Sequence record: SRR20825006_1472
Strand: one strand, 5' to 3'
DNA: 55,902 nucleotides
The first letter of the stretch is position 1. The number at the start of each line of letters is the position of its first letter. The notes below the pieces were generated by a model. It worked only from the letters and a program-made list of their open reading frames with translations. It had not been told where the DNA came from and did not search any database. The position numbers and the translations under genes are program-made. This document shows positions 20,080 through 49,003 of the stretch, piece by piece.

Positions 20080-21627
20080 ATGTACAAGATTTACCAGCAA
20101 ATTATTGATCAGGTCGCGCAAAAGATCGATGCGCCAAAGCAGGTTCAAGATGAGCAGATCAAAGCTGCTTTGCTGGATGATCTGGTGCATCGTTTGGAAG
20201 ATATTGAAGAAGGGGATGAACCCGCCCTGTTGCTGATGGATCGGCGTGGCTTGGTCAATTCGGCCAATGGCCGGGCGCTACGCATTTTGCCCATTGAAGT
20301 GGGGCAGCATGTGCATCCCAGCGAATTTGAGCCCAACCTGCCCGATGCAGGGCATCAAGATCAAAACGCCCCCACTTTGCTGCGCTTTCACGGATGTGAA
20401 GATCAAAAACTAATCTTTGCGGGTCAATGGCTGGGCAGTGGCCAACGGCTGTTGCTCACCGAAATTCGAGCTGGTCTTTCGCCGCTATTGGCGCAACCGT
20501 TGGAAGATATTTATGGGCTCACCCCCACTGAGCAACATATTTTGAACGATCTGGTGAAGGGCATGGATGCGCAAGCCATTGCCGACCAATCCGAGCGGAA
20601 AACCAGCACGGTGCGGCAGCACATAAAATCCATTCTGAACAAAACCAACGCCCGTTCTCAGGCACAATTGGTGGCGATGGTCGCCTCGGCGGGCACCATG
20701 CTCGACCAAATTGCGCTGCGGCAAGATTTGACTGAAGGCACACCGATTACCCTCAATCACGATCATTTAGATGGCGATTGGGTGCCTTATCGGCGGTTTG
20801 GCCTTGCGGGCGGTTGCCCGGTTTTGTTTTTCCACGGCGCCTTTTTCGGCATTATGCCGCAAGATATTGGCCGCACCGCGGCTCATATTTTGGGGTTAGA
20901 TGTGATCGCGATTGAGCGCCCCGGCTATGGGGCCAATCCCTTGGAAAAAGACATGGACCCTGTGGACCGAGCGATGCGCCAGGCCAAACGCGCTATGGAT
21001 CATGCGGGTTGGAAAAAGGCGGTGATTATGGGGCAAGATATTGGCACCCATTTCGCCTTTGCCTTCGCCCGCACATTCCCGCAGCACAGCATGGCGCTGA
21101 TTTGCGGGGCCACCACCCCGCCCATGGGCGGCATGGACGACACCCAACATATGCCAAAGCTGCACCGGGTGAATGCCTGGGCGGCGCAAAAAATGCCTGC
21201 CTTTATGCACTGGATCGTCAATGTCGGCATTGGCCAAATTCAGAAAAAGGGCGTGGACATCATCCCGCAATTATTATTCGCCGATGCGGAATTTGACCGG
21301 GACCGCTTAAGCCAAGCCAAATATCTTGCGGCGCTTGAAACAAGCTTTGCGTTGGTCACCGCCCAACAAGGTTTGGGCTTCACTGACGATATGCGCCTGA
21401 CCAATTTGGACTGGTGGGATTGGCTGGATGGTATGGATCTGCCCGTGCATTTATTCCACGGACAACAAAGCCAAACCGTTGCGCAATCGGCAGTTGAAAA
21501 AATGGTGCAAAGATTACCACAAGCCCAATTGCATCTGGTTGAAGATGCGGGTCATTCAATGCCGTTCACCCACGCCAATCTGCTTTTGCGACAGGCACTG
21601 CGCGCGGGTATTTTAAGCGGGTTCTGA
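20080..21627 (+). CDS. LuxR-type HTH plus C-terminal alpha/beta-hydrolase fusion regulator
   Basis: PAS-like N-terminus, YGLTPTE..TVRQHIKSILNKT..SQAQLV HTH, FFHG, ERPGYG, GQDIG and AGH hydrolase motifs; start placed at MYKIY. Confidence 0.85.
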   Translation: MYKIYQQIIDQVAQKIDAPKQVQDEQIKAALLDDLVHRLEDIEEGDEPALLLMDRRGLVNSANGRALRILPIEVGQHVHPSEFEPNLPDAGHQDQNAPTLLRFHGCEDQKLIFAGQWLGSGQRLLLTEIRAGLSPLLAQPLEDIYGLTPTEQHILNDLVKGMDAQAIADQSERKTSTVRQHIKSILNKTNARSQAQLVAMVASAGTMLDQIALRQDLTEGTPITLNHDHLDGDWVPYRRFGLAGGCPVLFFHGAFFGIMPQDIGRTAAHILGLDVIAIERPGYGANPLEKDMDPVDRAMRQAKRAMDHAGWKKAVIMGQDIGTHFAFAFARTFPQHSMALICGATTPPMGGMDDTQHMPKLHRVNAWAAQKMPAFMHWIVNVGIGQIQKKGVDIIPQLLFADAEFDRDRLSQAKYLAALETSFALVTAQQGLGFTDDMRLTNLDWWDWLDGMDLPVHLFHGQQSQTVAQSAVEKMVQRLPQAQLHLVEDAGHSMPFTHANLLLRQALRAGILSGF

Positions 21628-21643
21628 CCCCATTTTTTATAAT

Positions 21644-21661
21644 CTATACCAAATGGTAGTG
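21644..21661 (+). promoter_or_regulatory. Putative activator box 1
   Basis: CTATACCAAATGGTAGTG; TAGCGC hexamer 23 nt downstream; precedes the 21709 operon. Confidence 0.65.
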
Positions 21662-21708
21662 TTGGAAAAAATTATTGTCTGCTAGCGCAAGGCAAAAGGA
21701 GAGATTTG

Positions 21709-22692
21709 ATGTGGGATTTTAGTTTTTCAAAGTCGATGGGGTTGATGCGGCAAACCGCACCCTTCTTGCTGTTTCGGATGGCGGTCTACTTCATTGTCGC
21801 CGTTTCTATCGTGCTGATCACCGGTACCGGGGCGGGCATTGGCTATGGCGTCGGCTTTATGGGTGATGCCGATTTTCAAGGCACCACCACTTTTTGGGGC
21901 GGCGGCATCGGCTTAGCGCTCACCTTGGGCATCATCTTCTTCCTGCGCGAATATACGCTCTATATGGTCAAAGCTGGCCATATCGCGGTGATGATCGAAG
22001 CATTGGACGGGCGCGAATTGCCCCAAAATCAGGTGGCCTATGCGCAAACCATTGTGAAAAACCATTTTGGCAAAGCCTCAATTTTGTTTGGCATCGACCA
22101 ATTGGTGAAAGGCGTGATCAATGCCATCACCGGGCTGTTGCAGGGCCTGATGTCTTTGTTGCCTATTCCGGGGTTAGACCGGATTATGGGCGTAGTGCGC
22201 GCTTATCTTAAAGTGGCCGTTGGTCTGCTCGACGAAGTGGTATTGGCGCATATCTTGCGCACAAATGCAGAAAACCCATGGCATGGCGCGCGCGAAGCAT
22301 TGGTGCTTTATGGGCAAAATGCAAAGCCAATGATGATCAACGCTGCATGGGTCACCCTGTTTGTATATCTGCTGTCCTTCCTCGTGTTTCTGGTGATGTT
22401 GGCCCCTGCCGGTTTGGTGGTTTATTTGATGCCGGGCGCATGGTCTGCTGGTGGCATTGTGTTTGCCATTCTGTTCGCGTGGGCAGTTAAGGCCGCCTTG
22501 ATCGAACCATTCGCCATTGCATGTTTGCTGCAAGCCTTTTTCAAAGTCACCGATGGGCAAGTACCGAACCCGGAATGGGAAGAGCGTTTGGAAGGCGCAT
22601 CCAAGAAATTCAAAGAATTGGGCAATAAAGCCGCAGGCTGGGCTGGCATGGGTCCGAAAGACCCGCAACCAGAACCAACCAAGCCCGCCTAG
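21709..22692 (+). CDS. Conserved hypothetical integral membrane protein
   Basis: AAGGAG RBS, several TM segments, first gene of a three-gene operon. Confidence 0.75.
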   Translation: MWDFSFSKSMGLMRQTAPFLLFRMAVYFIVAVSIVLITGTGAGIGYGVGFMGDADFQGTTTFWGGGIGLALTLGIIFFLREYTLYMVKAGHIAVMIEALDGRELPQNQVAYAQTIVKNHFGKASILFGIDQLVKGVINAITGLLQGLMSLLPIPGLDRIMGVVRAYLKVAVGLLDEVVLAHILRTNAENPWHGAREALVLYGQNAKPMMINAAWVTLFVYLLSFLVFLVMLAPAGLVVYLMPGAWSAGGIVFAILFAWAVKAALIEPFAIACLLQAFFKVTDGQVPNPEWEERLEGASKKFKELGNKAAGWAGMGPKDPQPEPTKPA

Positions 22693-22701
22693 GGAGGAAA
22701 A

Positions 22702-24228
22702 ATGAAAAAACTTGCCATGATCACCATTGCCAGCTTGGCAATGGGCGCTACCGCTGTGTCTGCACAAGAGGCGGGCCGCACCATTATTGTGATGGACGGT
22801 TCTGGCTCCATGTGGGGGCAAATTGAGGGCGTACCAAAACTGCAAATTGCACGCGAAGCTGTGGCCGATCTATTACCGCAATTGGATGCAGACCAAGCAA
22901 TAGGCCTCGTCGCCTACGGCCACCGCCGCCGGGGCGATTGCAGCGACATTGAGGTGTTGGTGCAACCTGCCATGGGCCAATCTGAAGCGATTATTGATGC
23001 CGTCAATGAAATGCGGTTCCAAGGTAAAACACCGCTTTCCGCCGCGGTGCGACAAGCCGCTGACGCGCTGCGCTTTACTGAAGAACCAGCAACCGTAGTG
23101 CTGGTGACCGATGGGTTGGAAACCTGCGCAGCGGACCCCTGCGCCCTCGGCATCGAGCTGGAAAAAGCAGGCATTGATTTTACCGCGCACGTAATCGGCT
23201 TTGGATTGAGCCAGGCAGAAGGCGCGCAAGTCGCCTGTTTGGCGCAAAATACGGGTGGTCAATATGTGTCCGCGAAGGACGCCGATGGCCTGACCACCGC
23301 ACTTAATCAAACCGTTGGGCAAACAGCAGAAGTCAAATCAACTGAGCTGGCTGAGCCCGAGCCAATTGATCTGCCTACAGCGAAGCTGATGGTAGATAAG
23401 CAAAGCACGCCGATCACCACAGCCATTGAAGTAAGTTGGGACGGGCCGAACGCTGAAGATGACTTCATCGACATTGTTTCTGCCAAAACGCCTGAACAGG
23501 CAGGCCTCGACTTTATTTATACGGCCAACGGCAGTCCGCAATTGTTCAAAATGCCCGCCACGCCCGGCGACTATATTTTGCGCTATCGTTGGACAGGTCG
23601 CACTGGCTGGGACACAATTGCCACCCTCCCCATCACCGTAACGGAAGCAGAGTTTGTGCTCGACGCGCCGCAATCCGCCGAACAGGGGGAGATGGTCGAG
23701 GTGACATGGAAAGGGCCAAACAATGCGGATGATTATATCGACACCATAGAGCGCGGGGCCACCCGCACCGATGGTGAAGTGACCTATGCTTGGGCACGCG
23801 ATGGCAATCCGGCGCAATTGCAAATGCCTATTACACCGGGCGAATATCATCTGCGCTATATGGTGCAAGGCGAGCAAGATCGCTCTGTTGGCTTAATCGT
23901 GCCTCTCACTGTTTTGCCAACAACTGCAAATTTGGTGGCGCCTGAGCAGGTGAAGCCCGGCGCTGAATTTGAAGTGCAGTTCAACGCGCCCAACACCTCT
24001 GGCGATTGGGTAGATATTGTGACCCCCGGCTATGAAGAATTTAGCGGCGAGATCACATATTTCTATACGGAACACGCCCAAAATGGCGTGGGCCGCCTCA
24101 CCGCCCCGGCAGAAGAAGGCACCTTCGAATTGCGCTATGTGCTTGAAGGACGCGATGGCCGTATCGTGCTTGTGCGCAAGCCACTCATCGTCACCGCAAG
24201 TGCCGAATACACCATAATTTCAGAATAG
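22702..24228 (+). CDS. Secreted vWA-domain protein with three Ig-like repeats
   Basis: Signal peptide, DGSGS MIDAS, GKTPL and VTDG; three repeats of V.W.GPN..D.ID...P..PG.Y.LRY. Confidence 0.85.
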   Translation: MKKLAMITIASLAMGATAVSAQEAGRTIIVMDGSGSMWGQIEGVPKLQIAREAVADLLPQLDADQAIGLVAYGHRRRGDCSDIEVLVQPAMGQSEAIIDAVNEMRFQGKTPLSAAVRQAADALRFTEEPATVVLVTDGLETCAADPCALGIELEKAGIDFTAHVIGFGLSQAEGAQVACLAQNTGGQYVSAKDADGLTTALNQTVGQTAEVKSTELAEPEPIDLPTAKLMVDKQSTPITTAIEVSWDGPNAEDDFIDIVSAKTPEQAGLDFIYTANGSPQLFKMPATPGDYILRYRWTGRTGWDTIATLPITVTEAEFVLDAPQSAEQGEMVEVTWKGPNNADDYIDTIERGATRTDGEVTYAWARDGNPAQLQMPITPGEYHLRYMVQGEQDRSVGLIVPLTVLPTTANLVAPEQVKPGAEFEVQFNAPNTSGDWVDIVTPGYEEFSGEITYFYTEHAQNGVGRLTAPAEEGTFELRYVLEGRDGRIVLVRKPLIVTASAEYTIISE

Positions 24229-24236
24229 GAACCAAG

Positions 24237-24767
24237 ATGATGAATATGAAAATTGCAGCCCTATCCTCGTTCATTCTGCTCACCAGCGCCGCCGCCATAG
24301 ACGCGGCGCCGATTGTGCCGCAAGACGGATTATGGCGCGGCGATGCCACAGGTGGCAGTGTAGAAGATTGCAATCCCATGATGGAAAATATGTTGCAAAA
24401 TAATGGCGCTTTTACCCAAAAGGGCGAAACACGACGCATCGAATGGGGCGGTAAATTTGACCCGAATTCAATGAACATTTTCAATGAAGAAGGCGCCCCC
24501 ATGGCATGGGAAAGCACAGGCGAGAACAGCTATAAGGGCAAGATTTTTGACGGCTCAAGCTGCGCCAATGATGACACCAGCAGCTGCACCCGCGTCGGCG
24601 CAACCGTCACCATGCAATTGATCTCCCCCACCAAAATTGAAGGCACCACCTTGGTGGAGCTGGGGACGTTGATGGGCGACACCGAAGCAATGGCAGCGCT
24701 CAAGCAAATGGGCATGGCCGATTGCAAAGTGAATGTCACCTATGACGTGCAACGCATCGGCGACTAA
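24237..24767 (+). CDS. Hypothetical secreted protein
   Basis: Signal peptide, PQDGLW, four Cys; follows the vWA gene with an AGGA RBS. Confidence 0.7.
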   Translation: MMNMKIAALSSFILLTSAAAIDAAPIVPQDGLWRGDATGGSVEDCNPMMENMLQNNGAFTQKGETRRIEWGGKFDPNSMNIFNEEGAPMAWESTGENSYKGKIFDGSSCANDDTSSCTRVGATVTMQLISPTKIEGTTLVELGTLMGDTEAMAALKQMGMADCKVNVTYDVQRIGD

Positions 24768-24770
24768 AGC

Positions 24771-24795
24771 AAAGGCGGCCCAAGGCCGCCTTTTT
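24771..24795. terminator. Bidirectional rho-independent terminator
   Basis: AAAGGCGGCC-CAA-GGCCGCCTTTTT between convergent genes. Confidence 0.8.
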
Positions 24796-24796
24796 A

Positions 24797-26587: not shown

Positions 26588-26597
26588 GGGAAGACTT

Positions 26598-28591: not shown

Positions 28592-28600
28592 ATCTGTCCC

Positions 28601-32887: not shown

Positions 32888-33236
32888 GGATATGTCACAA
32901 TCAACCCAGGCATTCGCCGCCCTCAGCCAAGCCACACGGCTTGAAGTGTTCCGCCTGCTGGTGAAAGCCGGCGCGGATGGTCTTATGGCCGGGGAAATCG
33001 GCGAAAAACTGCAAGTCAAACAAAACACCATGTCGGCTAACCTTTCCGTGTTGCTGAATGCGGGCTTGGTGAAAAACAAGCGCGAGGGCCGCACCATTCG
33101 CTATTATGCGGATATGGACGGGGTCACCGCCATGCTTTCCTTTTTGCTGGAAGATTGTTGCGGCGGCCAGCCGCAATTGTGCCAGCCATTTATTCAACAA
33201 ATCACCTGTTCAACGGAAAATTGTAATGACGCGTAA
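32886..33236 (+). CDS. arsR: ArsR-family repressor
   Basis: ALSQATRLEVFRLL, REGRTIRY and C-terminal CCGGQPQLC As(III)-binding cysteines. Confidence 0.92.
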   Translation: MDMSQSTQAFAALSQATRLEVFRLLVKAGADGLMAGEIGEKLQVKQNTMSANLSVLLNAGLVKNKREGRTIRYYADMDGVTAMLSFLLEDCCGGQPQLCQPFIQQITCSTENCNDA

Positions 33237-33732
33237 AGCTGCTCACATTCTCATTCTGTGCACGGGCAATTCTGCCCGTTCTATTTTGGCCGAGGGGCTG
33301 ATCAACCATCTTGGCGCGCCAGATTTTGTTGCCTATTCTGCCGGGTCACAGCCCAAAGGCGAGCCACACCCACAGGCGTTGAAAACGCTGGAAAAGCATA
33401 AGATCGACACTGGCTTTGCCCGATCTAAAAGCTGGGACGAGTTTGCCGGAGCCGATGCGCCAGCGCTCGATTATATCATCACGGTTTGCGACAATTCGGC
33501 GGGCGAAACCTGCCCTATTTGGCCCGGCAAACCAACCACAGCTCATTGGGGCATTCCGGATCCCGCCGACGTCACCGCGCCGCAGGCGGCGGTGGAAGCT
33601 GCATTTGATCTGGCCTATGCCCAATTGCACGCGCGCATTTCGCGCTTCTTGGCACTACCATTCGATCAGCTCGACCCTACTGCCTTAAAACAAGAAATGA
33701 TGGCCATCGGTCAAATGGAAGAGGTGGCCTAA
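33226..33732 (+). CDS. arsC: Arsenate reductase, LMW-PTP fold
   Basis: LCTGNSARS, TVCD, CP.WPG and HWG.PDP; start placed at MTRK. Confidence 0.9.
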   Translation: MTRKAAHILILCTGNSARSILAEGLINHLGAPDFVAYSAGSQPKGEPHPQALKTLEKHKIDTGFARSKSWDEFAGADAPALDYIITVCDNSAGETCPIWPGKPTTAHWGIPDPADVTAPQAAVEAAFDLAYAQLHARISRFLALPFDQLDPTALKQEMMAIGQMEEVA

Positions 33733-34794
33733 ATGTCTACACAAGAGCAAAACACCGCTGCCCCGGGCGGCATCGGAACATTTGAAAAATATCTCTCCAT
33801 CTGGGTGGCCCTCGCCATCATTGTCGGCATTGGCCTTGGGCAAGTGATGCCCGGATTGGTGCAATTTTTGGCACAGCTGGAAGTCGCGAAGGTTAATCTG
33901 CCAGTCGCAATTTTGATTTGGGCGATGGTCTATCCGATGATGGTATCGGTCGATTTCAGCTCCATCAAAGATGTGGCGAAAGAACCGAAAGGCTTAGCGA
34001 TCACGTTGGTGGTAAACTGGCTGATCAAGCCCTTCACCATGGCGATTTTGGGCGTTGCCTTTTTCAAATATATTTTTGCCGCCTTCATCACCCCTGCCGA
34101 AGCCGACAGCTATATAGCCGGGCTGATTTTGTTGGGCGCCGCCCCCTGCACCGCCATGGTGTTTGTCTGGTCGCACCTCACCAAAGGCGATGCGAATTAC
34201 ACGCTGGTGCAAGTCAGCGTCAATGACCTCATCATGATCTTCGCCTATGCCCCCATCGTGGCAGTGCTGTTGGGCGTCACCAACATTCCCGTGCCGTGGG
34301 ACACGCTGGTGTTGAGCGTGGTGCTTTATGTGCTGGTGCCGCTTGTGGCGGGTTATCTCACCCGCAAAGCGCTGATCGCCCGCGCCCACAATGTCGCCGC
34401 CGTCGATGAGTTCACCGCCAAACTTAAGCCCGCTTCCATCGCTGGGCTGTTGGCCACCGTGGTGCTGTTGTTCGGTTTTCAAGGCGAAATCATCCTCGCC
34501 AATCCGCTGCTGATCTTGTTGATCGCCATTCCGTTGTTGCTGCAATCCTATGGCATTTTTGCGGTGGCCTATTTGGCCGCGTGGAAAATGAAAGTGCCGT
34601 TCCGCATCGCCGCCCCTTGCGCCCTAATCGGCACCTCCAACTTTTTTGAGTTGGCAGTCGCGGTTGCCATCGGCCTGTTTGGCCTCAATTCCGGCGCAGC
34701 GCTGGCAACGGTGGTCGGCGTGTTGGTGGAAGTGCCTGTGATGTTATCGCTGGTGGCCCTGGCCAACCGCACCAAGCAACATTTCCCCGGATAG
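33733..34794 (+). CDS. acr3: Arsenite efflux pump, ACR3 family
   Basis: [29 protein letters not shown] and VEVPVML. Confidence 0.93.
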
Positions 34795-34801
34795 CAAAAC
34801 C

Positions 34802-35524
34802 ATGACGGACCAAAAATCTGATATGCCCAATCTGGTCGCCGACCAGTTGCACCCGATTGACCACAGCCAATTGTTCGCGGCGCAACCCGCCCATCCCGTG
34901 CGCGTGTTGATGCTCTATGGCTCTTTGCGCAAACGGTCCTTCTCACGGCTTTTGACCGAAGAAGCCGCGCGAATTTTGGAAGCTTTGGGCGCTGAGGTGA
35001 AACTCTTCAACCCAAAGGGCCTGCCCTTAGTGGATGAAGACAATGTCGAGGACGAAAAAGTGCAAGAACTGCGCGAGCTGTCGCTCTGGTCAGAAGCGCA
35101 AGTCTGGTGTTCGCCGGAACGGCACGGCAATATGACCGGGCTGATGAAAACCCAGATCGACTGGCTGCCCCTCGCCCCCATCGGCGGCGTGCGCCCCACT
35201 CAAGGCCGCACCTTGGCTTTAATGCAAGTTTGCGGCGGCTCACAAAGCTTCAACACCGTCAATCAAATGCGAGTGCTGGGCCGATGGATGCGCATGATCA
35301 CCATCCCTAACCAGTCCTCGGTCCCCAAAGCCTTCAACGAATTTGACGAGGCGGGCCGCATGTTCCCCTCCCCTTATTACAATCGGGTCGTGGACGTGAT
35401 GGAAGAATTGATGAAGTTCACCCTCCTCACCCGCGGCACTGCCGACTATCTGGTGGACCGTTATTCCGAGCGCGTGGAAAGTCGCGAGGAGCTTTCTAAG
35501 CGAGTGAATATGAAAGCAATATAG
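34802..35524 (+). CDS. arsH: Organoarsenical oxidase ArsH
   Basis: [28 protein letters not shown] and YLVDRYSER. Confidence 0.94.
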
Positions 35525-35525
35525 C

Positions 35526-37803: not shown

Positions 37804-37804
37804 G

Positions 37805-39784: not shown

Positions 39785-39790
39785 CCTTAA

Positions 39791-39816: not shown

Positions 39817-39925
39817 CTGTTTGATTGGGCCCAAAAATGTTAGCCTAAACACGGAATCGGCGCGGAAACGCAAAAATTTCGATCTGCTTTGTTCCAAAGC
39901 AACTCGCGGCCGAAGGCCGCGAAAA

Positions 39926-41236
39926 TTAGGTTTTGCCCGAAGCAAAAGATTTTTTGGCGCTGCGCGCATATACCCCAATGCCCACCACCAACCCTGCCAC
40001 CACAAAGCCCACAAAGGCGGCGAGATTTACGTCGACCATGGTGAACAGAAATGTGGACACAACGCCTAAACAGAGTGAGGCGATGATTGTGCGGGGCATT
40101 TTGTGGGGCACAAAGAACGTGGCCCACACAGCGGGCAAGAAAGCAACTAGCGCACTGAAGGCGGCGATAACACTTTGCAGCATATCGCCCAACAGCCACG
40201 CCAGAAGGCCGATAAACACAAAAAGCGCTGCCACCAGCAGGCGCAATTGCGGTACTTGCAATTGGCTGCGTTGGGCGCCGCTCATTAGGGGCATGATGAA
40301 GGTGTCGATGGTGGACATGATCACCGCGATCAGCAAAATATCGGCCAACCAAGGTGCGCTTTCCGGCATCAACGCACGCAAGGTACCACTCATATCGCCG
40401 ATGAGTGTGGAGTTCACGCCCAGCCAATAAATGATCAAATAGCAGATGCCGCAAAGCGGCGCGCCGATCAAAAAGCCCCAGCTGGCCACATTCAAATCTT
40501 TCGCCACCACCATGCGCTGCCAATTGTCCACGGCCAACACGGCGCTGACAGGGATAAACAACCACACGCCCACCAGAAGTGGCCAGCGATAGGGCCCCAA
40601 ATCCCAAAAGGGTGCTTGTGGTGTGGTTAAGGTGCCAAAATTGGTCAGAAACAAAGCGACCATGCCGCCAACGATCAATAGGGCTTGGAAAATATCTGTG
40701 CGGGTGGCCGCGCGATAACCGCCAAAGGCGGTGTATCCACCAGTCACCAAAGTGGAGAGCAGGATCGCCTGCCCCGTGCTCAGGTTTAAAATCGAGCTGA
40801 GCAAGGCGGCCAGTGCCAACAGCTGCACAGCGGCCCGCAACAAAAACACCGAAGCAATCGGCAACCACACGCCAAAGGGATGTTTGATATTGTGCGCCAG
40901 CACAATCAAATCCACCAAGCCCGATGCTCCATATTGCTGGGCAACACGCTGCACAAAGGGCGCCAAGAAAGCGCAGAGGAATAGGCCCAACATATAGGCA
41001 AGCGCAAGCGACAAGCCAATAACCGGGCTGGCTTGCGAAAACAACATGATCGCCACAAAAGTGCCCACACCCATATTGCCGCAAATCACGCCTGCAAGGG
41101 TGGCGGCAAAGCCGCTTTGACCATCATTAAAAATATAGGCATTGCGGCTGATGTCCCGTGCGCTCAGCAAGGCATAAGCCAATGGCCCAATCAACGCCGC
41201 GGCCAAAATCAGCCCAAACCAAAATTGACTATTCAT
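39926..41236 (-). CDS. Sodium:solute symporter-like membrane protein
   Basis: Many TM helices, YTAFGGYRA..RTDIFQ, WQR and MSTID motifs. Confidence 0.75.
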   Translation of the reverse strand: MNSQFWFGLILAAALIGPLAYALLSARDISRNAYIFNDGQSGFAATLAGVICGNMGVGTFVAIMLFSQASPVIGLSLALAYMLGLFLCAFLAPFVQRVAQQYGASGLVDLIVLAHNIKHPFGVWLPIASVFLLRAAVQLLALAALLSSILNLSTGQAILLSTLVTGGYTAFGGYRAATRTDIFQALLIVGGMVALFLTNFGTLTTPQAPFWDLGPYRWPLLVGVWLFIPVSAVLAVDNWQRMVVAKDLNVASWGFLIGAPLCGICYLIIYWLGVNSTLIGDMSGTLRALMPESAPWLADILLIAVIMSTIDTFIMPLMSGAQRSQLQVPQLRLLVAALFVFIGLLAWLLGDMLQSVIAAFSALVAFLPAVWATFFVPHKMPRTIIASLCLGVVSTFLFTMVDVNLAAFVGFVVAGLVVGIGVYARSAKKSFASGKT

Positions 41237-41350
41237 TCAAACCTGCCCCCATCGGCGCCACCTTATGCGCAAACAGGATCATGCGTCTAGCCAACCCAAG
41301 GCTTCAGGCCGACAGAATTTGGGCCCATTGGTGCCAATAAACTTGTTTGT

Positions 41351-41368
41351 CCACCCCATTTGGGGGAG
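41351..41368 (+). promoter_or_regulatory. Putative activator box 2
   Basis: CCACCCCATTTGGGGGAG upstream of lemA; CATGGA 23 nt downstream. Confidence 0.55.
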
Positions 41369-41429
41369 GCCAAGGCCCCTCACCTGCGGCATGGAGGAAG
41401 CGCGGGGGGCTTTTGCTCAGAGGGAATTT

Positions 41430-42005
41430 ATGTTCAATCTCATCATTGGTGTTGTGATTTTAATCGGCGGCTATGTCTATTTGCAAAATCGGCTTGCTGC
41501 CGCCAAAAACGCCGTTTCAAACGCCTATGCAGGCATTCAGGTGCAATTGAAGCGGCGGCATGATTTGGTGCCTGCCTTGGTGGATGCAGTGCGCAGCGCC
41601 ATCAAGCATGAAGAAAAATTATTCGACCAAATCTTGGCGGTGCGCCAAGAGGCAGTGACTGCGCTCGATCAAGAAATTGAAAAGGTCGAAGTGGCAGAAG
41701 CAAGTCTAACCCAAGGCTTGCGCGACTTTTTCGCCTATGCGGAAGATCATCCCGAAATCACAGCCACGCAAAACATTTCTGAACTGCAAAAGCAATTGGA
41801 AGAAACAGAAGATCAAATCGCTGCATCGCGACGGCTCTATAATGGCAATGTGGAGCGGTTTAACACGCAATTGGATGCGATCCCGTCCAATTGGGTGGCG
41901 CAAACAATGCGGTTGGAAAAAGCGCCCTTCTTCGGCCTGAGCGCCAGTGAAGCAAAGTCCGCTTCGCATATGCCAAAGATTGATCTGCCTGGTGCCCAAT
42001 CATGA
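41430..42005 (+). CDS. lemA: LemA family protein
   Basis: N-terminal TM, IQVQLKRRHDLVP.LV and LEETEDQIAASRRLYN; start placed at MFNLII. Confidence 0.9.
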   Translation: MFNLIIGVVILIGGYVYLQNRLAAAKNAVSNAYAGIQVQLKRRHDLVPALVDAVRSAIKHEEKLFDQILAVRQEAVTALDQEIEKVEVAEASLTQGLRDFFAYAEDHPEITATQNISELQKQLEETEDQIAASRRLYNGNVERFNTQLDAIPSNWVAQTMRLEKAPFFGLSASEAKSASHMPKIDLPGAQS

Positions 42006-43033
42006 GCAAAGCGCGTACCCATTGGGATCCGATTGAGGGTCAAATCAGCATTAAAACGCCTGACCTTTCCACGATCAAGCAAGGCATTGCTTTGCCCATG
42101 TGGTTGAAGCGGATTCTACCGCTCGCCGCGGCACTGAGCTTTGTGGGCGTCATCATTGAAGGCATGGTGGTTGGCAGTTTCCCCATTTACAGCACGGTGG
42201 CGGCCACCGTTTTTATGGGCGCATTTCTGCTGGCCGATCATTTTGAAAATGAACATGGCCGCAAAACCATCAGGCGGGTGAAACTGGCGCATAGCCAAAA
42301 TTGGAGCTACACCCCCGATTTGATGGAGCGGCAATTGAACTATGTGGCGTCGAGCACCAGCGACGGCATTGAACGCCGCGCCACATCTGTCAAATCTGAA
42401 CGGGCCGAAAAGATTGAGGCCGAAGTACCCGAGCTCACCAAAGTGCAAGTGGGCGCCTATGTTGGGGCTTATTTTGACGGGGAATTTTGGGGCGAAAGCC
42501 GCGAAGACAGTTTGCCTTTTTGGCTCGCCCTTGGCTCCATGCAAATGGAAGCTGGGCTAGCGGCCGACCCCAATTTACGCCGCGATAATTTTGGCGGCCA
42601 AGGGGGCTATGGCCAGTTTTTCAGCCTACTTGGTGCCTATAAAATTGACCGAAAAACCGGCGTGCGCGTGGTGATCCAGCCAGAAAACATTCTGCATAAA
42701 GGCCCGTTGGACCGCGACATCAAAACCGAAAGCATGGACTTCAATGATCGGTTTAACATCGCGGGGCGCTATTTGGATAAAGGCCAATCCCAGCACACAC
42801 CCGACTTGGAAGTGATGCGCATTTTAACCCCGGCAACGCAAGATGCCATGTTGGCGCTGCACCATCGCTATCACAAGGTGGGCTTTGTGCTGGATGATGA
42901 TGTGCTGTATTTCATGGCGCAGGACAAGTTGGTAGGCAAAAATGCCATGCCTGATCGCATTGATGAATTGCTGTGCGAGCTATCACGCGAATTTGAAAGC
43001 GCCAAATTGGGCATCAAACCCTATATCGAATAG
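42002..43033 (+). CDS. Hypothetical two-TM membrane protein (LemA partner, possibly DUF3137-like)
   Basis: ATGA overlap with lemA; ESMDFNDRF and RILTPA motifs. Confidence 0.6.
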   Translation: MSKARTHWDPIEGQISIKTPDLSTIKQGIALPMWLKRILPLAAALSFVGVIIEGMVVGSFPIYSTVAATVFMGAFLLADHFENEHGRKTIRRVKLAHSQNWSYTPDLMERQLNYVASSTSDGIERRATSVKSERAEKIEAEVPELTKVQVGAYVGAYFDGEFWGESREDSLPFWLALGSMQMEAGLAADPNLRRDNFGGQGGYGQFFSLLGAYKIDRKTGVRVVIQPENILHKGPLDRDIKTESMDFNDRFNIAGRYLDKGQSQHTPDLEVMRILTPATQDAMLALHHRYHKVGFVLDDDVLYFMAQDKLVGKNAMPDRIDELLCELSREFESAKLGIKPYIE

Positions 43034-43142
43034 GCTTCATCACAGATTTACGCGCGGTTGCAAATGTGAATTTTGCAACTAATTTCGCGCGCCCTCTTCA
43101 AACCAAAGGTCACTCGTGCCAAATTGGCGCCGGAGGACATGT

Positions 43143-44933
43143 ATGGATTATCGTCTTTTGCCCCAAAAGTCGGGGCCAACCCTTTTATTTCGTCAGTGGA
43201 AACCTTCCACAAGCAGCGCGGAACGCGCCGTTTTTTTGGGCCATTCCCAACCCACCCATTCGGGCATGTTGGGACCGTTGGCTGAAGGTTTTCAACGCCA
43301 AGGCTGGCATGTTTTTTCCGGCGATGTGCGCGGCCATGGCCGCAGCACCGACGATGCGCATATTTTGGGCCATTTGCCTGCCAAAAGCGGATGGCAAGAC
43401 GCGGTGGCGGACATGCGCCACTTTTTGGAAAAAAGCTTCGAGCATATTGCATGGGAAAACCGCATGGTGGTGGTGCCCAACATCACCGCCCTGCTGACCC
43501 TTGAAGTGATGAAAGACTGGCCAGACCTCGCCAAACATATCGTGTTGATCTCACCGCCGCCAAACCAGAAAACCCTTGCCCTTTTCGGCAAAGCGTTCGC
43601 TTTGGCGCGCATGCGGATGAGAAAACCCGATGCGCCGGACGAACAGCCGCTTCATCACCTCTATGCCTTTTTGGGCAGTCATTTGAAAGACCGCAACCAC
43701 CCGGCAGATGTGATGAGTTCGGACCGTGCATTGATCCAAAAAGTGGTGAACGACCCTTATGGCTGGCCGATCCCAACGCCCGCCTATTGGTCGAATATTT
43801 TTGAAGGCATGCTTTCGGCCTGGCGCTGGCCGAAAGACGCCCAGATGAAACCAGGCACGCGGTGCCTAATGATGTTTGGCGGCGAGGACGCCATGTTGCG
43901 CGATGGCGGTTTTCTCGCCCCGATCGAACGGTTTCTGCATCAGATCGGCATTGATGATGTGGCTTCAGAACGGGTGAATGGCGCGCGTTCCGCTTTGTTT
44001 TTGGAAGAAAATAAATATCAGATCAGCAAGCGGGTGTTGGATTGGGCCGAAGGTACCCATCGGCCGCAGGCGGACCATGAAGAAATGGCTGTTGCCGATT
44101 TGGCCAGCAGCATGATTACCCATATGGGCACGGCGCAAAATACAGAGCTTGGGGCCAGCGAACTGGTAGAGCTTTGCTACAACGCCATTGACGATGAAAG
44201 CCGCTGGACCGAGGTGATCTATCGCATGATCTATGATGCAGAGCTTGAAGGCGATGTGTCAGAAGAAGATATGCAAGCGCGGATCAGCCAATTAATGCCC
44301 CATTGGGAACGGGCCTTTACCCTCAACCAGCAGGTGATGATGAACGCCACTTTGGGCATTTTGCTGCAAACCGTGGTGGAGAAACTGCAAATCGGCGTCG
44401 CGATCTTAGACCGTGATGGAGAACTGCTGCACGCAAACGAAACCTATCGTTCGCTGCTCAATCATCTCTTCCCAGATATAGCGGCTCAAGGCAATCAGGA
44501 TGGCTATGACCATCGGGCCACACGGCTTTTATTGGCCTCTGCCAATGATGACGAAGCGGGCAAGGACCGCGTGATCATTTTTCAGGAAAAGCCTGTCGGC
44601 TTTCAGTTTTACCCCCCTGCCCTGCACCAAACCGGGTTGCAGCGCAAAAAGCCTGCTTCCATTTTGATCGCACGCAGTGGCGCAGAATCTGGCGAGATCA
44701 GCAGCGATAAAAAAGTGTTGGCAGAATTGGCCTATGGCCTAACGGGCAAGGAAGCCGAGATCGCATTGGGCGTGGCAGCGGGCCAAAGCTTGGATGAAAT
44801 CGCCGAACAGTTAGGCATTTATGTCAGCACCGTGCGCGGCCACTTAAAAAAGAGCTTTCAAAAAGTTGGGGTGCACAGCCAGGCGGAGCTTTCCGCCCGG
44901 CTTATGTCCGGCCCCATTGGCTGGCTCAAATAA
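43143..44933 (+). CDS. Alpha/beta-hydrolase-fold (degenerate) plus PAS-like plus C-terminal LuxR HTH regulator
   Basis: GGAGG RBS, DVRGHGRS lysophospholipase-like N-terminus, YGLTGKEAE..TVRGHLKKSFQKVGVHSQAEL HTH. Confidence 0.85.
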   Translation: MDYRLLPQKSGPTLLFRQWKPSTSSAERAVFLGHSQPTHSGMLGPLAEGFQRQGWHVFSGDVRGHGRSTDDAHILGHLPAKSGWQDAVADMRHFLEKSFEHIAWENRMVVVPNITALLTLEVMKDWPDLAKHIVLISPPPNQKTLALFGKAFALARMRMRKPDAPDEQPLHHLYAFLGSHLKDRNHPADVMSSDRALIQKVVNDPYGWPIPTPAYWSNIFEGMLSAWRWPKDAQMKPGTRCLMMFGGEDAMLRDGGFLAPIERFLHQIGIDDVASERVNGARSALFLEENKYQISKRVLDWAEGTHRPQADHEEMAVADLASSMITHMGTAQNTELGASELVELCYNAIDDESRWTEVIYRMIYDAELEGDVSEEDMQARISQLMPHWERAFTLNQQVMMNATLGILLQTVVEKLQIGVAILDRDGELLHANETYRSLLNHLFPDIAAQGNQDGYDHRATRLLLASANDDEAGKDRVIIFQEKPVGFQFYPPALHQTGLQRKKPASILIARSGAESGEISSDKKVLAELAYGLTGKEAEIALGVAAGQSLDEIAEQLGIYVSTVRGHLKKSFQKVGVHSQAELSARLMSGPIGWLK

Positions 44934-45350
44934 TTATCGATTGTTGCAATGTAGGTCTGATTTCAGATCATAAACCCGGTGCATTTTGCCCTGCGCCACA
45001 TTGATCACGCGGTTGCCAACATAGCGGTTTGTTGTTGGGTTTCTGCATGTCAGTTTGATCCGCACTTTGCGCTTCACGCTGCACCCCACAATTTTATAGG
45101 TGATGGTGCCACTCACTTGCTCGCCCGCCTTGATCGTGTCGAAACGCCCGCCATAGGTGATTGGCGCTTTGATGCCGCCTGAATACCATGTAGCGTTCGC
45201 GCGGGTGCGCGATTCAATTTTAAACCGAATATCAGTGTCCGTGACGTTTTTAAACACATAGTTTTTAACGCAATCTGCCGCCACCGATGGTGCCGCAAAC
45301 CCCAGAATTGAAAATGCTGTAAAGGCCGCGCCCAGTGTCAATTTTTTCAT
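44934..45350 (-). CDS. Small basic secreted protein
   Basis: GGAG RBS, signal peptide MKKLTLG..VAA, K/R-rich mature part with four Cys. Confidence 0.7.
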   Translation of the reverse strand: MKKLTLGAAFTAFSILGFAAPSVAADCVKNYVFKNVTDTDIRFKIESRTRANATWYSGGIKAPITYGGRFDTIKAGEQVSGTITYKIVGCSVKRKVRIKLTCRNPTTNRYVGNRVINVAQGKMHRVYDLKSDLHCNNR

Positions 45351-45416
45351 TTGTCTCTCCTCTAACCGCCCCCGGTCTGAACTGAGACCAACCTATTGGC
45401 GACAAAGGCATTTGGC

Positions 45417-45434
45417 CTCTCCCAAATGGGTGAG
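45417..45434 (-). promoter_or_regulatory. Putative activator box 3
   Basis: CTCACCCATTTGGGAGAG on the minus strand; TAGGTT 23 nt downstream. Confidence 0.65.
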
Positions 45435-45435
45435 A

Positions 45436-46128
45436 TTATCGACAAACAATGTAAGAAAATGCCGTGCATTGGCCCTGGCATACAGCGGCGATGTTCACAG
45501 CGCGGGATGTTGTGGTCAGGCCAAAACATGCGGCCTTAGATTTGCGCTGAATAACGCAAATGGGATTGGCGGCAGGCAACCCACAATTTTCCGACGAAAA
45601 GCCCTTTTGGTCTAGGCAAACGCTGACGCCAGCTGCCTGTGCGTGCGGAAATTTAGGGTTTTTAATCAACCAACCTGCGCAAGGCTTTTCGCTATAGCCT
45701 TCGAGATTGGTGAATTCGACGGGATGATCACCCGATGCGGCAGTTTGGTCAGGTTCAAATAAATCAATTTCCTTCTGGTCCGTTTCCGAACCGTCAAACA
45801 AATCGATCTCCTTGGTGGGTGCCTCATCACCGTCGAAAAGCTGGATGGCGCTATCCTCGCCATCCTTGTCAAGTTGGGCCGGGTTTTCCGGTTCGCCAGG
45901 TTCGGGAAATGCATCGTCAAAATAACGATCAGGATATTTCTGAATGTAAAGGTCGGTTGCCTGATCTTGCGTTTCCACCCCCAACAACACCAAGGCGTCG
46001 TCGGCATCTACTCCCAAACCTTGGCAGCCAAATCCCGCCGCGCATCGCAAATGGTCGGCACTTTGGGCAAGAGCTATTTGGCCCATGCCAAGCAACGCGA
46101 TGAACAACGGCGGGATCAGCCGGGTCAT
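45436..46128 (-). CDS. Secreted acidic protein with Cys-rich C-terminal domain
   Basis: Signal peptide, three 13-aa repeats (I.LFD/E), CG..AA..C..C..C Cys cluster; ATGA overlap with the upstream gene. Confidence 0.7.
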   Translation of the reverse strand: MTRLIPPLFIALLGMGQIALAQSADHLRCAAGFGCQGLGVDADDALVLLGVETQDQATDLYIQKYPDRYFDDAFPEPGEPENPAQLDKDGEDSAIQLFDGDEAPTKEIDLFDGSETDQKEIDLFEPDQTAASGDHPVEFTNLEGYSEKPCAGWLIKNPKFPHAQAAGVSVCLDQKGFSSENCGLPAANPICVIQRKSKAACFGLTTTSRAVNIAAVCQGQCTAFSYIVCR

Positions 46129-48059
46129 TGCAATTGCTCAATCGCAAATTGATCGACGAAATAGTGGCTTTCGCCCGGCGCACCGCCATTCCATTGACCA
46201 AGGAAGAAGCTTGGCTGGCCAGAAAGGCGCAAGCTGGTGATTTCTTCGCTCTCCACCGTCACACTTTGGGCCGGATTGTCGCCCATGGCGGGCACATTCA
46301 GCGTAACCGATGCCGTCAGCTTCCGCCCGCGTCGCTTGAGGGTTAGCTTCGCCCCCTCATCCGCCAGCATCTGCAAAATTTTGTCCGCATCCGCGCGCGG
46401 CCCGGCACTGCAAATATTATCGATCACTGGCCCATCAAACAGCACAGATTTGAACTGCGTTTTCTCCGGCTTTTCACCTTCAGCACCTGCCACCTTGATC
46501 AAAGAGAGATTGATGCTCGGGCCGCAGCCTTTCCATTCAGCCCATAGCAGTGCGCCAATTTGATTGGCCGCATTGTCATAGAGCGATAGCCAAGCATGTT
46601 CGCTCCCCGTTTGAATGGGGAACCGCACCTGCATCGTCAGGTCAAAATCACCGTCCGGCAAAGGCTTATCCAAAATATAGCGGTTTTGTGCCTCTGCATG
46701 ATCGTAGAAATTGTTGCGCCCAAAGGCGGAGACGAAAATCTCCCCTGCCCCATTCAAGGCTTTGGCATCTGCCAATTCCTGCTCTATTGACCACGCCGCA
46801 TCAAGTGCTGGACCATCAAAATTTTCTTCGAAATATTTGCTGGCCACCGGCTCTGGTTCTGGCGCGGGCGCTGGTTCTGCTGGTGCCTCTGTGTCCGCAA
46901 CGGCTTGCTCCACCGCGTCCACAAACTCATCGGCATTGGCCGCAGCATAATAATTGCCATTGCCATTATCCGCGATACATTGCAGCGCCTGTGCTTCTTC
47001 ATCGCTCAGGTCAAAGCCAACCACATGCACCCGCGTATCCACGCCCTGCGCCGCCAATTCAGCCGCCGCCGCACATGGATCGCCGCCACATGTTTCCAAA
47101 CCATCTGAGATCAGCAAGATATTTGCCCGGCGATCTGCGCTCGGGAAAGCGCCGGCCGCTTCCGCCAACGCACCTGCAATTGGCGTTTTGCCACGCGGGC
47201 TTACGCCATCAATAGCAGGGCCCATTTGGCCTGAAGCATGGTCCGCAACAGGCATCAAAATTTCTGTGTCAGCACAATCACCTTCGCGCCGATGGCCATA
47301 AGCCATCAAGCCCACGCGTGTGGTCGACGGCAAATCGCCAACAAGGCCCTTAAGCGCCTGTTTGGCGGTGGTGATTTTCGCCACCCCGTCAATCTGCCCC
47401 CACATGGACCCGGAGCCATCGAGAATAAAGAGCAAATCGCTCCCCTCCCCCGGTTGCCCATTGCCCGGCAGGTCCCCTTGCTCCATGCCAACCTGCTCAT
47501 CAGGATCGTCCATCTCGGCATCCGCCATGTTCAAAGTGGTCTCAGTCCCATCATTTGGCGCATATGAAATGCCCATTTCGCGCATCGCCTGCACAAGGGA
47601 CCAATCGTCCGTCTCGCAATAAATATCGCTAATCTGCCATTCTTCCCCTGGTTTCCACTGCACCAAGGTGTAAAGGGTCGATGTGGGGCGGCCAAAATTG
47701 GTGAAGTTCACCCGCACTTGCGCCGCACCGCGCAACATTGGCAATTCGGGGTCTGGCATGATCTGCAAATCTGCAATTTCAGCATCCTGCCCGCAAAATA
47801 CCGGATCAGCGCCCAATTGGCCCTGCAGCCCATCAATGGCCAAATCATCGACCATATATTTTTCCGCCGCCTTGGCCTCATTGAGCAATGGCTCATCGCC
47901 CGCGATAAAGCGCGTGGAGTGATCAGCGAAAAAGAGCCGCACCATCTGCACAGCACTGTCCATTTCCGCCTCTTGCGCCTGTGCCACACCGCCCAAACCG
48001 AGGCTCAACGCACTGATGGCCAAGAATGATGATGTTTTGTGAATCAAATCTTTTATCAT
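46125..48059 (-). CDS. Secreted multidomain vWA protein
   Basis: Signal peptide, DUF3828-like N-domain (ADP...QD..WQISDI), DGSGS MIDAS vWA, PA/PE linker, C-terminal beta-sandwich-like domain. Confidence 0.82.
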   Translation of the reverse strand: MIKDLIHKTSSFLAISALSLGLGGVAQAQEAEMDSAVQMVRLFFADHSTRFIAGDEPLLNEAKAAEKYMVDDLAIDGLQGQLGADPVFCGQDAEIADLQIMPDPELPMLRGAAQVRVNFTNFGRPTSTLYTLVQWKPGEEWQISDIYCETDDWSLVQAMREMGISYAPNDGTETTLNMADAEMDDPDEQVGMEQGDLPGNGQPGEGSDLLFILDGSGSMWGQIDGVAKITTAKQALKGLVGDLPSTTRVGLMAYGHRREGDCADTEILMPVADHASGQMGPAIDGVSPRGKTPIAGALAEAAGAFPSADRRANILLISDGLETCGGDPCAAAAELAAQGVDTRVHVVGFDLSDEEAQALQCIADNGNGNYYAAANADEFVDAVEQAVADTEAPAEPAPAPEPEPVASKYFEENFDGPALDAAWSIEQELADAKALNGAGEIFVSAFGRNNFYDHAEAQNRYILDKPLPDGDFDLTMQVRFPIQTGSEHAWLSLYDNAANQIGALLWAEWKGCGPSINLSLIKVAGAEGEKPEKTQFKSVLFDGPVIDNICSAGPRADADKILQMLADEGAKLTLKRRGRKLTASVTLNVPAMGDNPAQSVTVESEEITSLRLSGQPSFFLGQWNGGAPGESHYFVDQFAIEQLQ

Positions 48060-48928
48060 TGGCCCGCCTCAATACGCATTTCTTGGAAAAGTGCCGTGCT
48101 TTCGCCCGACCCGGCTTTTTTGAACTGTCCCAACATGAAAAAGGGTTGCCCGAAATTTTCCGTCCGCGCCAAGCGGCGCGTGGCAAACTCGTAAGCACCA
48201 GCTGGCTGGTCGCCTAAAGCGGGCATATTGAGGGTTACCCCGGCATGATATTGAAAGCCCGTGCGGGTGAGCCGAAGATCAAACCCTTTCTCAAAAAGCG
48301 CTACCAATGCCTCGTCGGCAATGGCGCGCGGTGCATCGCTGCAAATATTGTCGAGCAAAGGCCCATCAAACAGATTGCTGGTGAACTGAGTAACCGTTGG
48401 CTTTTCCCCTTCAACCAAAATTCGCGAACTTTCCACATGCAGATAAAGCGCAGTGCCGCAGCCCTTTGTGTGGGCATATAATTGCGCCGCAATGTAATTA
48501 TCCTCATCTTCGCGCAAACCGATCCAAACACTTTCTTCGCCGGTTTTGGTTTCCAACTTGGCGGAAATCTGCATGGTGAAATCACCCTCAGGCAATCCGC
48601 CATCAAGGGTGAAAATATTGTCTGCCTCTGCATTGTCCGGCGTGGCCGTGCCGCCATTTTCAAGCATAAAAATCTCGCCGGCCTCCAGCACATATTTGTC
48701 CAAATTCTCATTTTGAACCGCCCAAGATGCCGACAAAGCATTCCCGTCAAACGGATCAACAAAGGGAAGCGCCAATGTTTGCGCTACTGCTGCTCCATTG
48801 TCCGCCGCTGCTAACCGCGCCTGTTCCTCCGCTGACATCTCCTCCTGCGCCCCTGCCAAAGGCACAAGTCCGGACAACATCACCACCACCGCAAGGCTCA
48901 ACCGGGTGGATTTTGCCGTAAATCGCAT
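48056..48928 (-). CDS. Secreted protein paralogous to the C-terminal domain of the downstream vWA protein
   Basis: Signal peptide; shares FDG.AL...W, LP.GDF, KGCG, LFDGP..DNICS..PRA.AD and GES motifs. Confidence 0.75.
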   Translation of the reverse strand: MRFTAKSTRLSLAVVVMLSGLVPLAGAQEEMSAEEQARLAAADNGAAVAQTLALPFVDPFDGNALSASWAVQNENLDKYVLEAGEIFMLENGGTATPDNAEADNIFTLDGGLPEGDFTMQISAKLETKTGEESVWIGLREDEDNYIAAQLYAHTKGCGTALYLHVESSRILVEGEKPTVTQFTSNLFDGPLLDNICSDAPRAIADEALVALFEKGFDLRLTRTGFQYHAGVTLNMPALGDQPAGAYEFATRRLARTENFGQPFFMLGQFKKAGSGESTALFQEMRIEAGQ

Positions 48929-48985
48929 ATTTCAAACTCCAACTGACCAATTGGCCCACCGTTAGCAAGCCAAATGCATTGCCGC

Positions 48986-49003
48986 CTCTACCAAATGGTA
49001 TAG
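48986..49003 (-). promoter_or_regulatory. Putative activator box 4
   Basis: CTATACCATTTGGTAGAG on the minus strand (15/18 identical to box 1); TAACGG 23 nt downstream. Confidence 0.65.

Follow-up and report, generated by a model that had tools for sequence, protein, structure and literature searches.

Two hydrolase-fused LuxR-type regulators and their candidate operators beside envelope-protein operons on a repABC replicon

The stretch of DNA analysed here (55,902 nucleotides of sequence record SRR20825006_1472, referred to as the window) encodes two different regulators that combine a LuxR/GerE-type helix-turn-helix (HTH) domain with an alpha/beta-hydrolase fold, Reg1 and Reg2, and carries four 18-bp palindromic boxes in front of genes for exported or membrane proteins. 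An earlier note, made from the sequence alone, had treated the boxes as one motif marking one regulon. Comparison with related loci splits the sites instead: box A is of a Reg1 type, boxes B and C are of a Reg2 type, and box D is a hybrid. We favor, with moderate confidence, an explanation in which two one-component activators, two box types and signal sensing by the hydrolase folds control a local envelope regulon. Its parts differ in strength. The boxes are very probably operators of Reg1 and Reg2; they probably mediate activation, as judged from promoter geometry; and a sensory role of the hydrolase fold is a reading towards which we lean.

Each of the four 18-mers in the earlier note was recovered exactly once. 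Box A (CTATACCAAATGGTAGTG; 21644..21661, + strand) is followed by a predicted −10 at 21683-21688 and a +1 near 21695, and box B (CCACCCCATTTGGGGGAG; 41351..41368, + strand) by a predicted −10 at 41390-41395 and a +1 near 41402. On the − strand, box C (CTCACCCATTTGGGAGAG; 45417..45434) has its predicted −10 at 45395-45390 and +1 near 45383, and box D (CTATACCATTTGGTAGAG; 48986..49003) at 48964-48959 and near 48952. The hexamers TAGCGC, CATGGA, TAGGTT and TAACGG singled out earlier all begin 21 nt past the box (23 nt past TGGKRG), which puts the dyad centre of these four sites at −42.5 if the hexamer occupies −12 to −7. A start codon follows each box at 47-66 nt. The boxes precede the A1-A2-A3 genes, lemA-DUF3137, C1 and the D1-D2-D3 operon, respectively, in two clusters; this layout agrees with the earlier note, which had put the clusters about 17 kb apart, and the measured gap is 16.6 kb, on a repABC replicon.

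A position weight matrix (PWM) built from the four sites ranked them as the top positions in the window. With each site left out in turn, B, C and D outranked every non-site position, and three non-site positions outscored box A, because A belongs to another box class. An 18-base union pattern, which is post hoc in being built from the sites themselves, gave 4 matches, compared with a mean of 0.005 (maximum 1) in 200 second-order Markov resamplings. The core MCCAWWTGGK alone gave a weaker signal (7 matches; resampled mean 2.0, maximum 6), and three of its seven matches (18050, 22097 and 44119) lie outside a promoter position.

We compared 37 loci around Reg2 relatives (including L002) and nine around full-length Reg1 relatives (L001, L041-L048) with 71 plain-hydrolase control loci; the short fragment L049 was excluded. 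At a score of at least 13, the window PWM gave 68 matches in 25 of the 37 Reg2 loci (Markov expectation 4.7), 8 matches in 8 of the 9 Reg1 loci (expectation 1.0) and 9 matches in 5 of the 71 control loci (expectation 4.0). Sixteen close Reg2 loci come from records outside Maritalea, named Hoeflea, Nitratireductor, Stappia, Mesorhizobium, Pelagibacterium, Pseudooceanicola, Roseovarius and others. All 16 have a box ahead of the D operon; in 11 one stands directly before lemA or DUF3137, and in 8 before the C-position gene. All nine Reg1 loci have a regulator-adjacent box (one scoring 12.3). The PWM scan and the search upstream of orthologues that the earlier note had proposed as a check show that the boxes are kept at orthologous operons in other alphaproteobacteria. 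Across the 37 Reg2 loci, a vWA homologue was found in 31, lemA in 22 and a symporter homologue in 19. No clear box was found at distant HTH-hydrolase relatives in Ruegeria TM1040 and Aliiroseovarius (L003, L004), although the L003 regulator also adjoins a vWA operon, or within 1.5 kb of seven other vWA loci of Maritalea genomes.

Five whole genomes of 3.5-4.6 Mb were scanned. Two of them belong to the closest named relatives of the window, Maritalea mobilis and Maritalea sp. S77 (Reg2 identity 98% and 96%), and served as its stand-ins. In all five genomes, every Reg2-type match lay within approximately 12 kb of reg2, and control matches were zero. Because Reg2-type boxes occur only beside reg2 in these genomes, the regulon is a local cassette. 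In the two Maritalea genomes, the exact Reg1 pattern matched only boxes A and D; a further match was a contig-end duplicate.

Reg1 (515 aa; 20080..21627, + strand) comprises N-terminal helices, a PAS-like region at approximately residues 46-130, the HTH (STVRQHIK; PF00196, E = 1.5e-9, above the cut-off) and a C-terminal alpha/beta hydrolase. The PAS-like alpha/beta region was recognized from the structure model only and had no Pfam match. The hydrolase folds like haloalkane dehalogenases and epoxide hydrolases, and all 17 sequences compared keep its elbow Asp320 and His492. No conserved acid was seen after the two strands that usually precede the catalytic acid, and Ser464 is invariant there. 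Judging from these residues, Reg1 may act slowly as an enzyme or trap its ligand covalently.

Reg2 (596 aa; 43143..44933, + strand) was modeled with a mean predicted local distance difference test score of 86, in the order monoglyceride-lipase fold, helical linker, PAS domain and C-terminal HTH (STVRGHLKK). Its HTH matches PF00196 (E = 7.4e-9, above the cut-off) and its hydrolase PF12146 (Hydrolase_4, E = 4.9e-16), for which the top Foldseek matches are monoglyceride lipases with target template modelling scores up to 0.82. The PAS_8 match (E = 0.0011) falls just below the cut-off, and the model has a PAS-like topology there. In alignment with a Bacillus homologue that has an intact triad, the GHSMG elbow falls on VPNIT of Reg2; the acid is retained, and another residue stands in place of the His. 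Over 29 Reg2 sequences, the nucleophilic Ser is Asn113 in 29, Asp249 is kept in 29, and position 283 is Ser, Thr, Ala or Gln (Ser283 in the window) and His in none. The Reg2 hydrolase has thus lost two residues of the catalytic Ser-Asp-His triad and is, by sequence, a dead lipase fold. It is under purifying selection, with 71 silent and 21 amino-acid-changing codons relative to L006. The earlier note had reported two LuxR-HTH/hydrolase fusions beside the clusters; both are present, but they differ in domain order and hydrolase family.

The C-terminal half of Reg2 aligns with three stand-alone HTH regulators of 357-388 aa and lacks approximately 90 residues that these hold between the same two helices. 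This deletion suggests that an old sensor was lost from Reg2 and that the pseudo-lipase took its place. A GAF label for the deleted domain was not confirmed by Pfam on four stand-alone relatives. The PDB entries 6ide, 6kju and 6ugl (VqmA) were weak matches to the HTH. Hydrolase folds are used for signal perception in the plant receptors GID1 and D14/KAI2 and in the Bacillus RsbQ-RsbP system. GID1 lacks the catalytic His, and RsbQ acts with a PAS domain. We liken the Reg proteins to these receptors; GID1, D14/KAI2 and RsbQ are separate proteins acting through partners, whereas the hydrolase fold here is fused to a DNA-binding domain.

Activation could proceed as we propose with the hydrolase serving instead as a scaffold for protein or membrane contact, or as an autoinhibitory lid, the signal entering through PAS and Reg1 possibly being an active enzyme. 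Reg2 does retain a PAS domain, the sensor in VqmA and in Streptomyces PAS-LuxR proteins, and Reg1 has kept Asp320 and His492 in all sequences on a fold like that of the haloalkane dehalogenases and epoxide hydrolases. However, PAS is the least conserved domain of Reg2, the ancestral middle domain has been deleted, and the invariance of Asn113 at the buried elbow suggests a maintained pocket. We consider this alternative unlikely and retain the hydrolase fold as the preferred sensor.

The autoinducer-binding domain PF03472 was not matched on Reg1 or Reg2 and was found on the control LuxR solos L011 and L035; no acyl-homoserine lactone (AHL) synthase was found among the 50 window proteins scanned. 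Separate LuxR proteins adjoin several cassettes (L011:7900-8631 and L035:9026-9799, with similar open reading frames (ORFs) in L163, L164 and L169), and the two that were scanned, L011 and L035, hold the autoinducer-binding domain. Quorum signals may feed in at cassettes of the L011/L035 type. On Tistrella mobilis pTM3, a duplicate of the N-terminal half of Reg1 with an identical HTH and no hydrolase (L001:4009-4875) lies approximately 5 kb upstream of the full reg1, across an inserted DNA-methylase-like ORF.

The split between box types was seen with class PWMs trained without Maritalea. All 8 Reg1 sites carry T4-A5, T14-A15 and T17; all 31 Reg2 sites carry C5 and G14, and 30 of them A17. Box A scored 20.8 on the Reg1 PWM and 7.9 on the Reg2 PWM, box B −5.9 and 20.8, and box C 0.0 and 26.7. 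A third, GTCAYYCA-type class was recovered de novo from 17 distant Reg2 loci, 15 of which carry it. The helix TxRQxxK goes with the TACCA-NN-TGGTA box (Reg1), TxRGHLKK with CTCHCYCA-WW-TGRGDGAG (Reg2) and TxRTHLKR with the GTCAYYCA-type box of the distant Reg2 loci. That box class tracks the recognition helix supports the proposed cognate assignment, as a correspondence rather than a statistical test of co-evolution.

Box D shares its left arm with A, carries A5 and T14, which occur in no other Reg2-cluster site, and keeps A17; it combines Reg1-type inner arms with a Reg2-type outer right arm. It is identical in Maritalea sp. S77 despite a diverged upstream flank. In three genomes that lack a close Reg1 orthologue, no exact Reg1 box occurs and the D box is Reg2-type. 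The simplest reading of these sequences would be that the D promoter was pulled toward Reg1 control in the Maritalea lineage. In L029 and L030, a distant Reg2 has Reg1-type regulators as neighbours, and the likely reg2 start is preceded, at 69 and 104 nt, by a Reg1-type box, a hint that the two regulators may be wired together in other genomes too.

The single regulon of the earlier note, in which either regulator, or just one, binds all four boxes, draws on the CA-WW-TG core and spacing common to all of them, on the intermediate character of D and on the location of both clusters on one replicon. It is improbable in view of the strict alternation at positions 5 and 14 (A/T in all 8 Reg1 sites, C/G in all 31 Reg2 sites), the opposite PWM preferences of A and B, and the joint absence of a close Reg1 orthologue and of exact Reg1-type boxes from three genomes.

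Some further sequences resemble the boxes. Related palindromes were seen by eye beside 7 of 20 more distant HTH-hydrolase loci (L040:9907, L150:3635, L167:3100, L170:792, L171:2715, L173:3652 and L174:3417). Several are of a ATACCCCA-NN-TGGGGTAT type, which suggests a possible fourth specificity class in the wider family. In the window, a box-like core at 18046-18063 was rejected, being negative on all three class PWMs with no gene behind it; 17933-18369 is gene-free, and A-rich short repeats follow the core at approximately 18070-18140. In-gene PWM matches at 1722 (16.7) and 49408 (17.3) were treated as chance; the latter is of the third class, for which the window has no regulator. Upstream of reg1 and reg2 in the window, no box scoring at least 10 on the class PWMs occurred among the four best matches listed, so direct autoregulation is not supported. 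The DUF3137-reg2 gap (43033-43143) holds an inverted repeat without a T-run, seen by eye; read-through across it would place reg2 under its own box B.

For promoter geometry, 50 sites were aligned in the direction of the homologue that lies downstream of each. The conserved signal outside the box was limited to T at −12 (36/50), A at −11 (41/50) and a weak G at −14 and −33. For the spacing test, removal of both Maritalea loci, the four window sites and the near-duplicates L013, L016, L019, L033, L043 and L044 left 38 sites. TA followed the box after exactly 21 nt in 21 of these and on the mirror side in 2 (Fisher p = 2.5e-6); at spacers of 17-20 and 22-26 nt it occurred in at most 2. T at −7 was present in 15 of the 38 sites, in agreement with the 30-43% given for alphaproteobacterial promoters in PMC7703639. 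Lux boxes are described as centred at −42.5 (PMC3376562, PMC4471428), and the box position, taken from the predicted −10, is consistent with a dyad centred there and with the geometry of class II activation. The lux-box likeness claimed in the earlier note is confined to position, as predicted from the conserved TA; neither regulator has an autoinducer-binding domain.

The boxes could instead serve repression, with the bound regulator covering the −35 region until a ligand dislodges it, since the 18-mer covers −51 to −34 and touches the position of the −35 hexamer. Yet no −35 hexamer is conserved next to the box in the aligned sites, and, by reasoning from class II activation, activator contact needs such a rigid 21-nt spacing and a repressor does not; we regard repression as quite improbable. 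That the palindromes are not regulator sites at all (chance, a mobile repeat, an RNA hairpin or an alternative-sigma element) is barely credible, since, although the motif was defined post hoc from four sites and its short core also occurs inside genes, its position is kept across several families with diverged flanks, it is confined near the regulator, and class changes follow the HTH.

Single boxes also lie between divergent envelope-protein genes (L002:18435, L018:7579, L026:7394, L027:7338, L033:7581 and L039:4976). Several of these are flanked by a −10-like hexamer on both sides, which suggests that one box could drive two promoters. Box B may likewise face the symporter gene.

Three sequencing runs touch the window. 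Assembled contigs cannot reveal transcription starts or levels; those of X1 and X2 look DNA-like, with even coverage of genes and spacers. In run X3, taken as RNA only by guess, one contig starts at 41405, missing the +1 predicted for box B by 3 nt, and another ends at 45394, which is 11 nt past the +1 predicted for box C. The first has a loose end, and neither was used as evidence. Contigs of X3 bear A-rich or T-rich untemplated tails, as from tailed RNA, at 40528, 40977, 41063, 41405 and 43514.

In the activation mechanism that we favor, Reg1 and Reg2 would be different one-component activators with HTH domains of the LuxR/FixJ-NarL type. A dimer centred at −42.5 would overlap the −35 region and, by class II activation, bring sigma70 RNA polymerase to promoters that are weak by themselves. 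Reg2 would drive lemA-DUF3137 from box B and C1 from box C, and Reg1 would drive A1-A2-A3 from box A. The D operon, which has a Reg2-type box in other genera and a box shifted toward Reg1 in Maritalea, would probably answer to Reg1 or to both. The hydrolase folds are most likely ligand pockets, not catabolic enzymes. The probable ligand of the dead lipase of Reg2 is a small molecule, lipid-like or acylated and possibly imported by the symporter, whose binding would release the PAS-HTH half; the Asp-His pocket of Reg1 probably senses a different compound. The output would be a local periplasmic and inner-membrane set (vWA/MIDAS, lectin-like and LemA-DUF3137 proteins), most likely remodeling or equipping the envelope.

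A number of observations weigh against this explanation. The window PWM found no match in 12 of the 37 Reg2 loci; most of these carry third-class boxes, two are represented by short contigs, and no box was seen in L037. The expected TA is missing from 17 of the 38 sites. The class PWMs were trained on the same loci that they describe, and box D scores nearly equally on the two (15.2 and 14.0). The three classes are also three lineages, so that the pairing of box and helix reflects shared ancestry and not dozens of independent events, and the Reg2 groups have support of only 93/73 and 94/90 in a 75-column tree. The Reg2 hydrolase is not the best-conserved domain (mean identity 52%, compared with 58% for the HTH and 38% for PAS) and holds 21 of the 23 amino-acid-changing Reg2 codons relative to L006, being less strictly kept than the other domains. 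The PAS domain could be the sensor of Reg2 instead. The symporter was not seen in 18 of the 37 Reg2 loci. The exact Reg1 pattern has 2 distinct sites per Maritalea genome, compared with 0-2 control matches per genome, and with one mismatch it occurs at chance level in the five genomes; for these reasons the genome-wide rarity of the Reg1 box is weakly shown. The possibility raised in the earlier note, that the motif is frequent at random genome-wide, is countered by the confinement of Reg2-type boxes near reg2 with zero control matches, but only weakly for the Reg1 type.

The box-associated genes encode proteins of the cell envelope. Behind box A lie A1 (21709..22692, + strand), a 327-aa membrane protein with approximately five hydrophobic segments, A2 (22702..24228, + strand), a 508-aa vWA protein with a signal-like N-terminus and a DxSxS metal-ion-dependent adhesion site (MIDAS) motif, and A3 (24237..24767, + strand), a 176-aa exported protein. 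A1 follows a Reg1 box in L042, L045 and L046; it has no family in Pfam, NCBIfam or PADLOC, and only a weak lead to DUF6159, scoring 0.82. Box B precedes the LemA family protein (41430..42005, + strand; true start inside the ORF at 41265-42005), with one N-terminal membrane segment, and the DUF3137 protein (42002..43033, + strand), with two. Divergent from lemA is a sodium:solute symporter gene (39926..41236, − strand; approximately 13 hydrophobic segments), a candidate importer of the signal that the earlier note had not listed.

C1 (44934..45350, − strand) is a 138-aa basic exported protein with 24 Lys and Arg, 8 Asp and Glu and 4 Cys residues. The D operon encodes D1 (48056..48928, − strand), a 290-aa exported protein, D2 (46125..48059, − strand), a 644-aa exported vWA protein with DxSxS and a C-terminal domain approximately 42% identical to D1, and D3 (45436..46128, − strand), a 230-aa exported protein with 10 Cys residues. 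A3, C1, D1 and D3 have no family in Pfam or NCBIfam. D1 and the D2 C-terminus resemble concanavalin-A-like domains (GH43_C2, PelX_N), as an Atlas lead only. By eye and hydropathy, A2, A3, C1 and D1-D3 start with signal-peptide-like segments, and A1, LemA and DUF3137 are membrane proteins. This bears out the envelope location in the earlier note; its term "secreted" reads as periplasmic by default. Among 41 box-associated proteins of other loci, 11 are vWA proteins and 25 have no Pfam family; SH3, DUF3137, SLT-SPOR, FG-GAP and OmpA-PAN domains occur in single proteins.

The accessible text of a preprint (bioRxiv 10.64898/2026.10.21.759321) reports that LemA proteins drive membrane remodeling and vesicle formation in P. 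aeruginosa and that one LemA protein is induced by envelope stress; DUF3137, LuxR and vWA are not mentioned in that text. Because of this report and the periplasmic and inner-membrane targets, our best guess for the output of the cassette, a tentative one, is envelope remodeling. A more speculative picture, which we think doubtful, is a mobile two-tier chemosensory cassette. The dead lipase-HTH protein would be a receptor for a lipid (a host, predator or damaged-membrane signal imported by the symporter) that triggers LemA-driven vesiculation with vWA and lectin-like periplasmic cargo, and Reg1 would covalently capture a second compound and enter the same programme through box D and the box upstream of reg2 in L029 and L030.

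Several known systems work in a similar way. LuxR and the lux box (Vibrio fischeri LuxR, TraR type) share with the present case the GerE/LuxR HTH and have an inverted repeat at −42.5, as described in PMC3376562 and PMC4471428, the position predicted for the boxes here; the present case differs in lacking an autoinducer-binding domain on either regulator and an AHL synthase in the window, in its shorter box (18 bp instead of 20 bp), in having a hydrolase fold as the candidate sensor, and in its envelope-protein targets. Streptomyces PimM and FscRI combine PAS with a LuxR HTH and have a central-WW palindrome at the −35 of cluster-local targets (PMC9774167). The 16-bp PimM consensus given in that source, CTVGGGAWWTCCCBAG, is not matched by the 18-bp boxes with their C-run on the left and G-run on the right, and the proteins here have an extra hydrolase fold and targets other than biosynthetic genes. 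VqmA of Vibrio cholerae and phage VP882 is likewise a one-component PAS-LuxR-HTH activator with an 18-bp binding stretch and few targets (PMC8284805). Its key palindrome in that account, GG-N6-CC, is unlike the boxes; it senses 3,5-dimethylpyrazin-2-ol (DPO), its target is a small RNA, and it has no hydrolase domain. GtaR and CerM of Rhodobacteraceae are LuxR-family proteins of related hosts with palindromic sites; they are described as AHL-type proteins with an unrelated 22-bp motif, RACMTGTCYWWWWRGACAKGTY (PMC11655674). The working mode is LuxR-, VqmA- or PimM-like, but outside the AHL-LuxR group. No published description of these fusions or boxes was found in the literature searched, subscription journals and regulon databases being outside the search.

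The new elements contributed by this window are a second regulator, the division into box classes and the hybrid box D. For two unstudied families of LuxR-type regulators with a fused hydrolase, the analysis supplies precise candidate operators, predicted starts and target lists, and LemA-DUF3137 and several family-less vWA and lectin-like proteins gain a regulatory context. The three natural orthogonal box/helix pairs, together with the hybrid box, offer a small model for operator specificity change and regulon rewiring. A pseudo-lipase serving a bacterial transcription factor as its sensor would, if true, be an unusual design for signal input, and it would suggest that marine alphaproteobacteria respond to a lipid-like signal. 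The switch logic itself, an HTH dimer at −42.5, is conventional.

The repA-repB-repC operon at 50627-54240 marks the window as part of a repABC plasmid or chromid. A D2 orthologue was found in 2 of 9 Maritalea genomes searched; because of this narrow occurrence, the cassette is patchy and probably mobile. A four-gene operon of the cyclic-oligonucleotide-based antiphage signaling system (CBASS) type lies at 12149-16533 (patatin phospholipase, oligonucleotide cyclase, E1-E2 and JAB), with a GC content of 49%, below the 54% of the box clusters. It is preceded by genes for a Fic protein (9494-10075), a phage-type integrase (10439-11074) and a DUF2971 protein (11195-11902) that matches the PADLOC candidate PDC-S31. 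A second Fic protein is encoded at 18369-19913, divergent from reg1. Between the clusters, at 33106-35524, lie genes for a low-molecular-weight phosphatase/ArsC-like protein, an Acr3-like SBF transporter and an ArsH-like FMN reductase, which may be arsenic-resistance-type genes, the ars names being our own reading.

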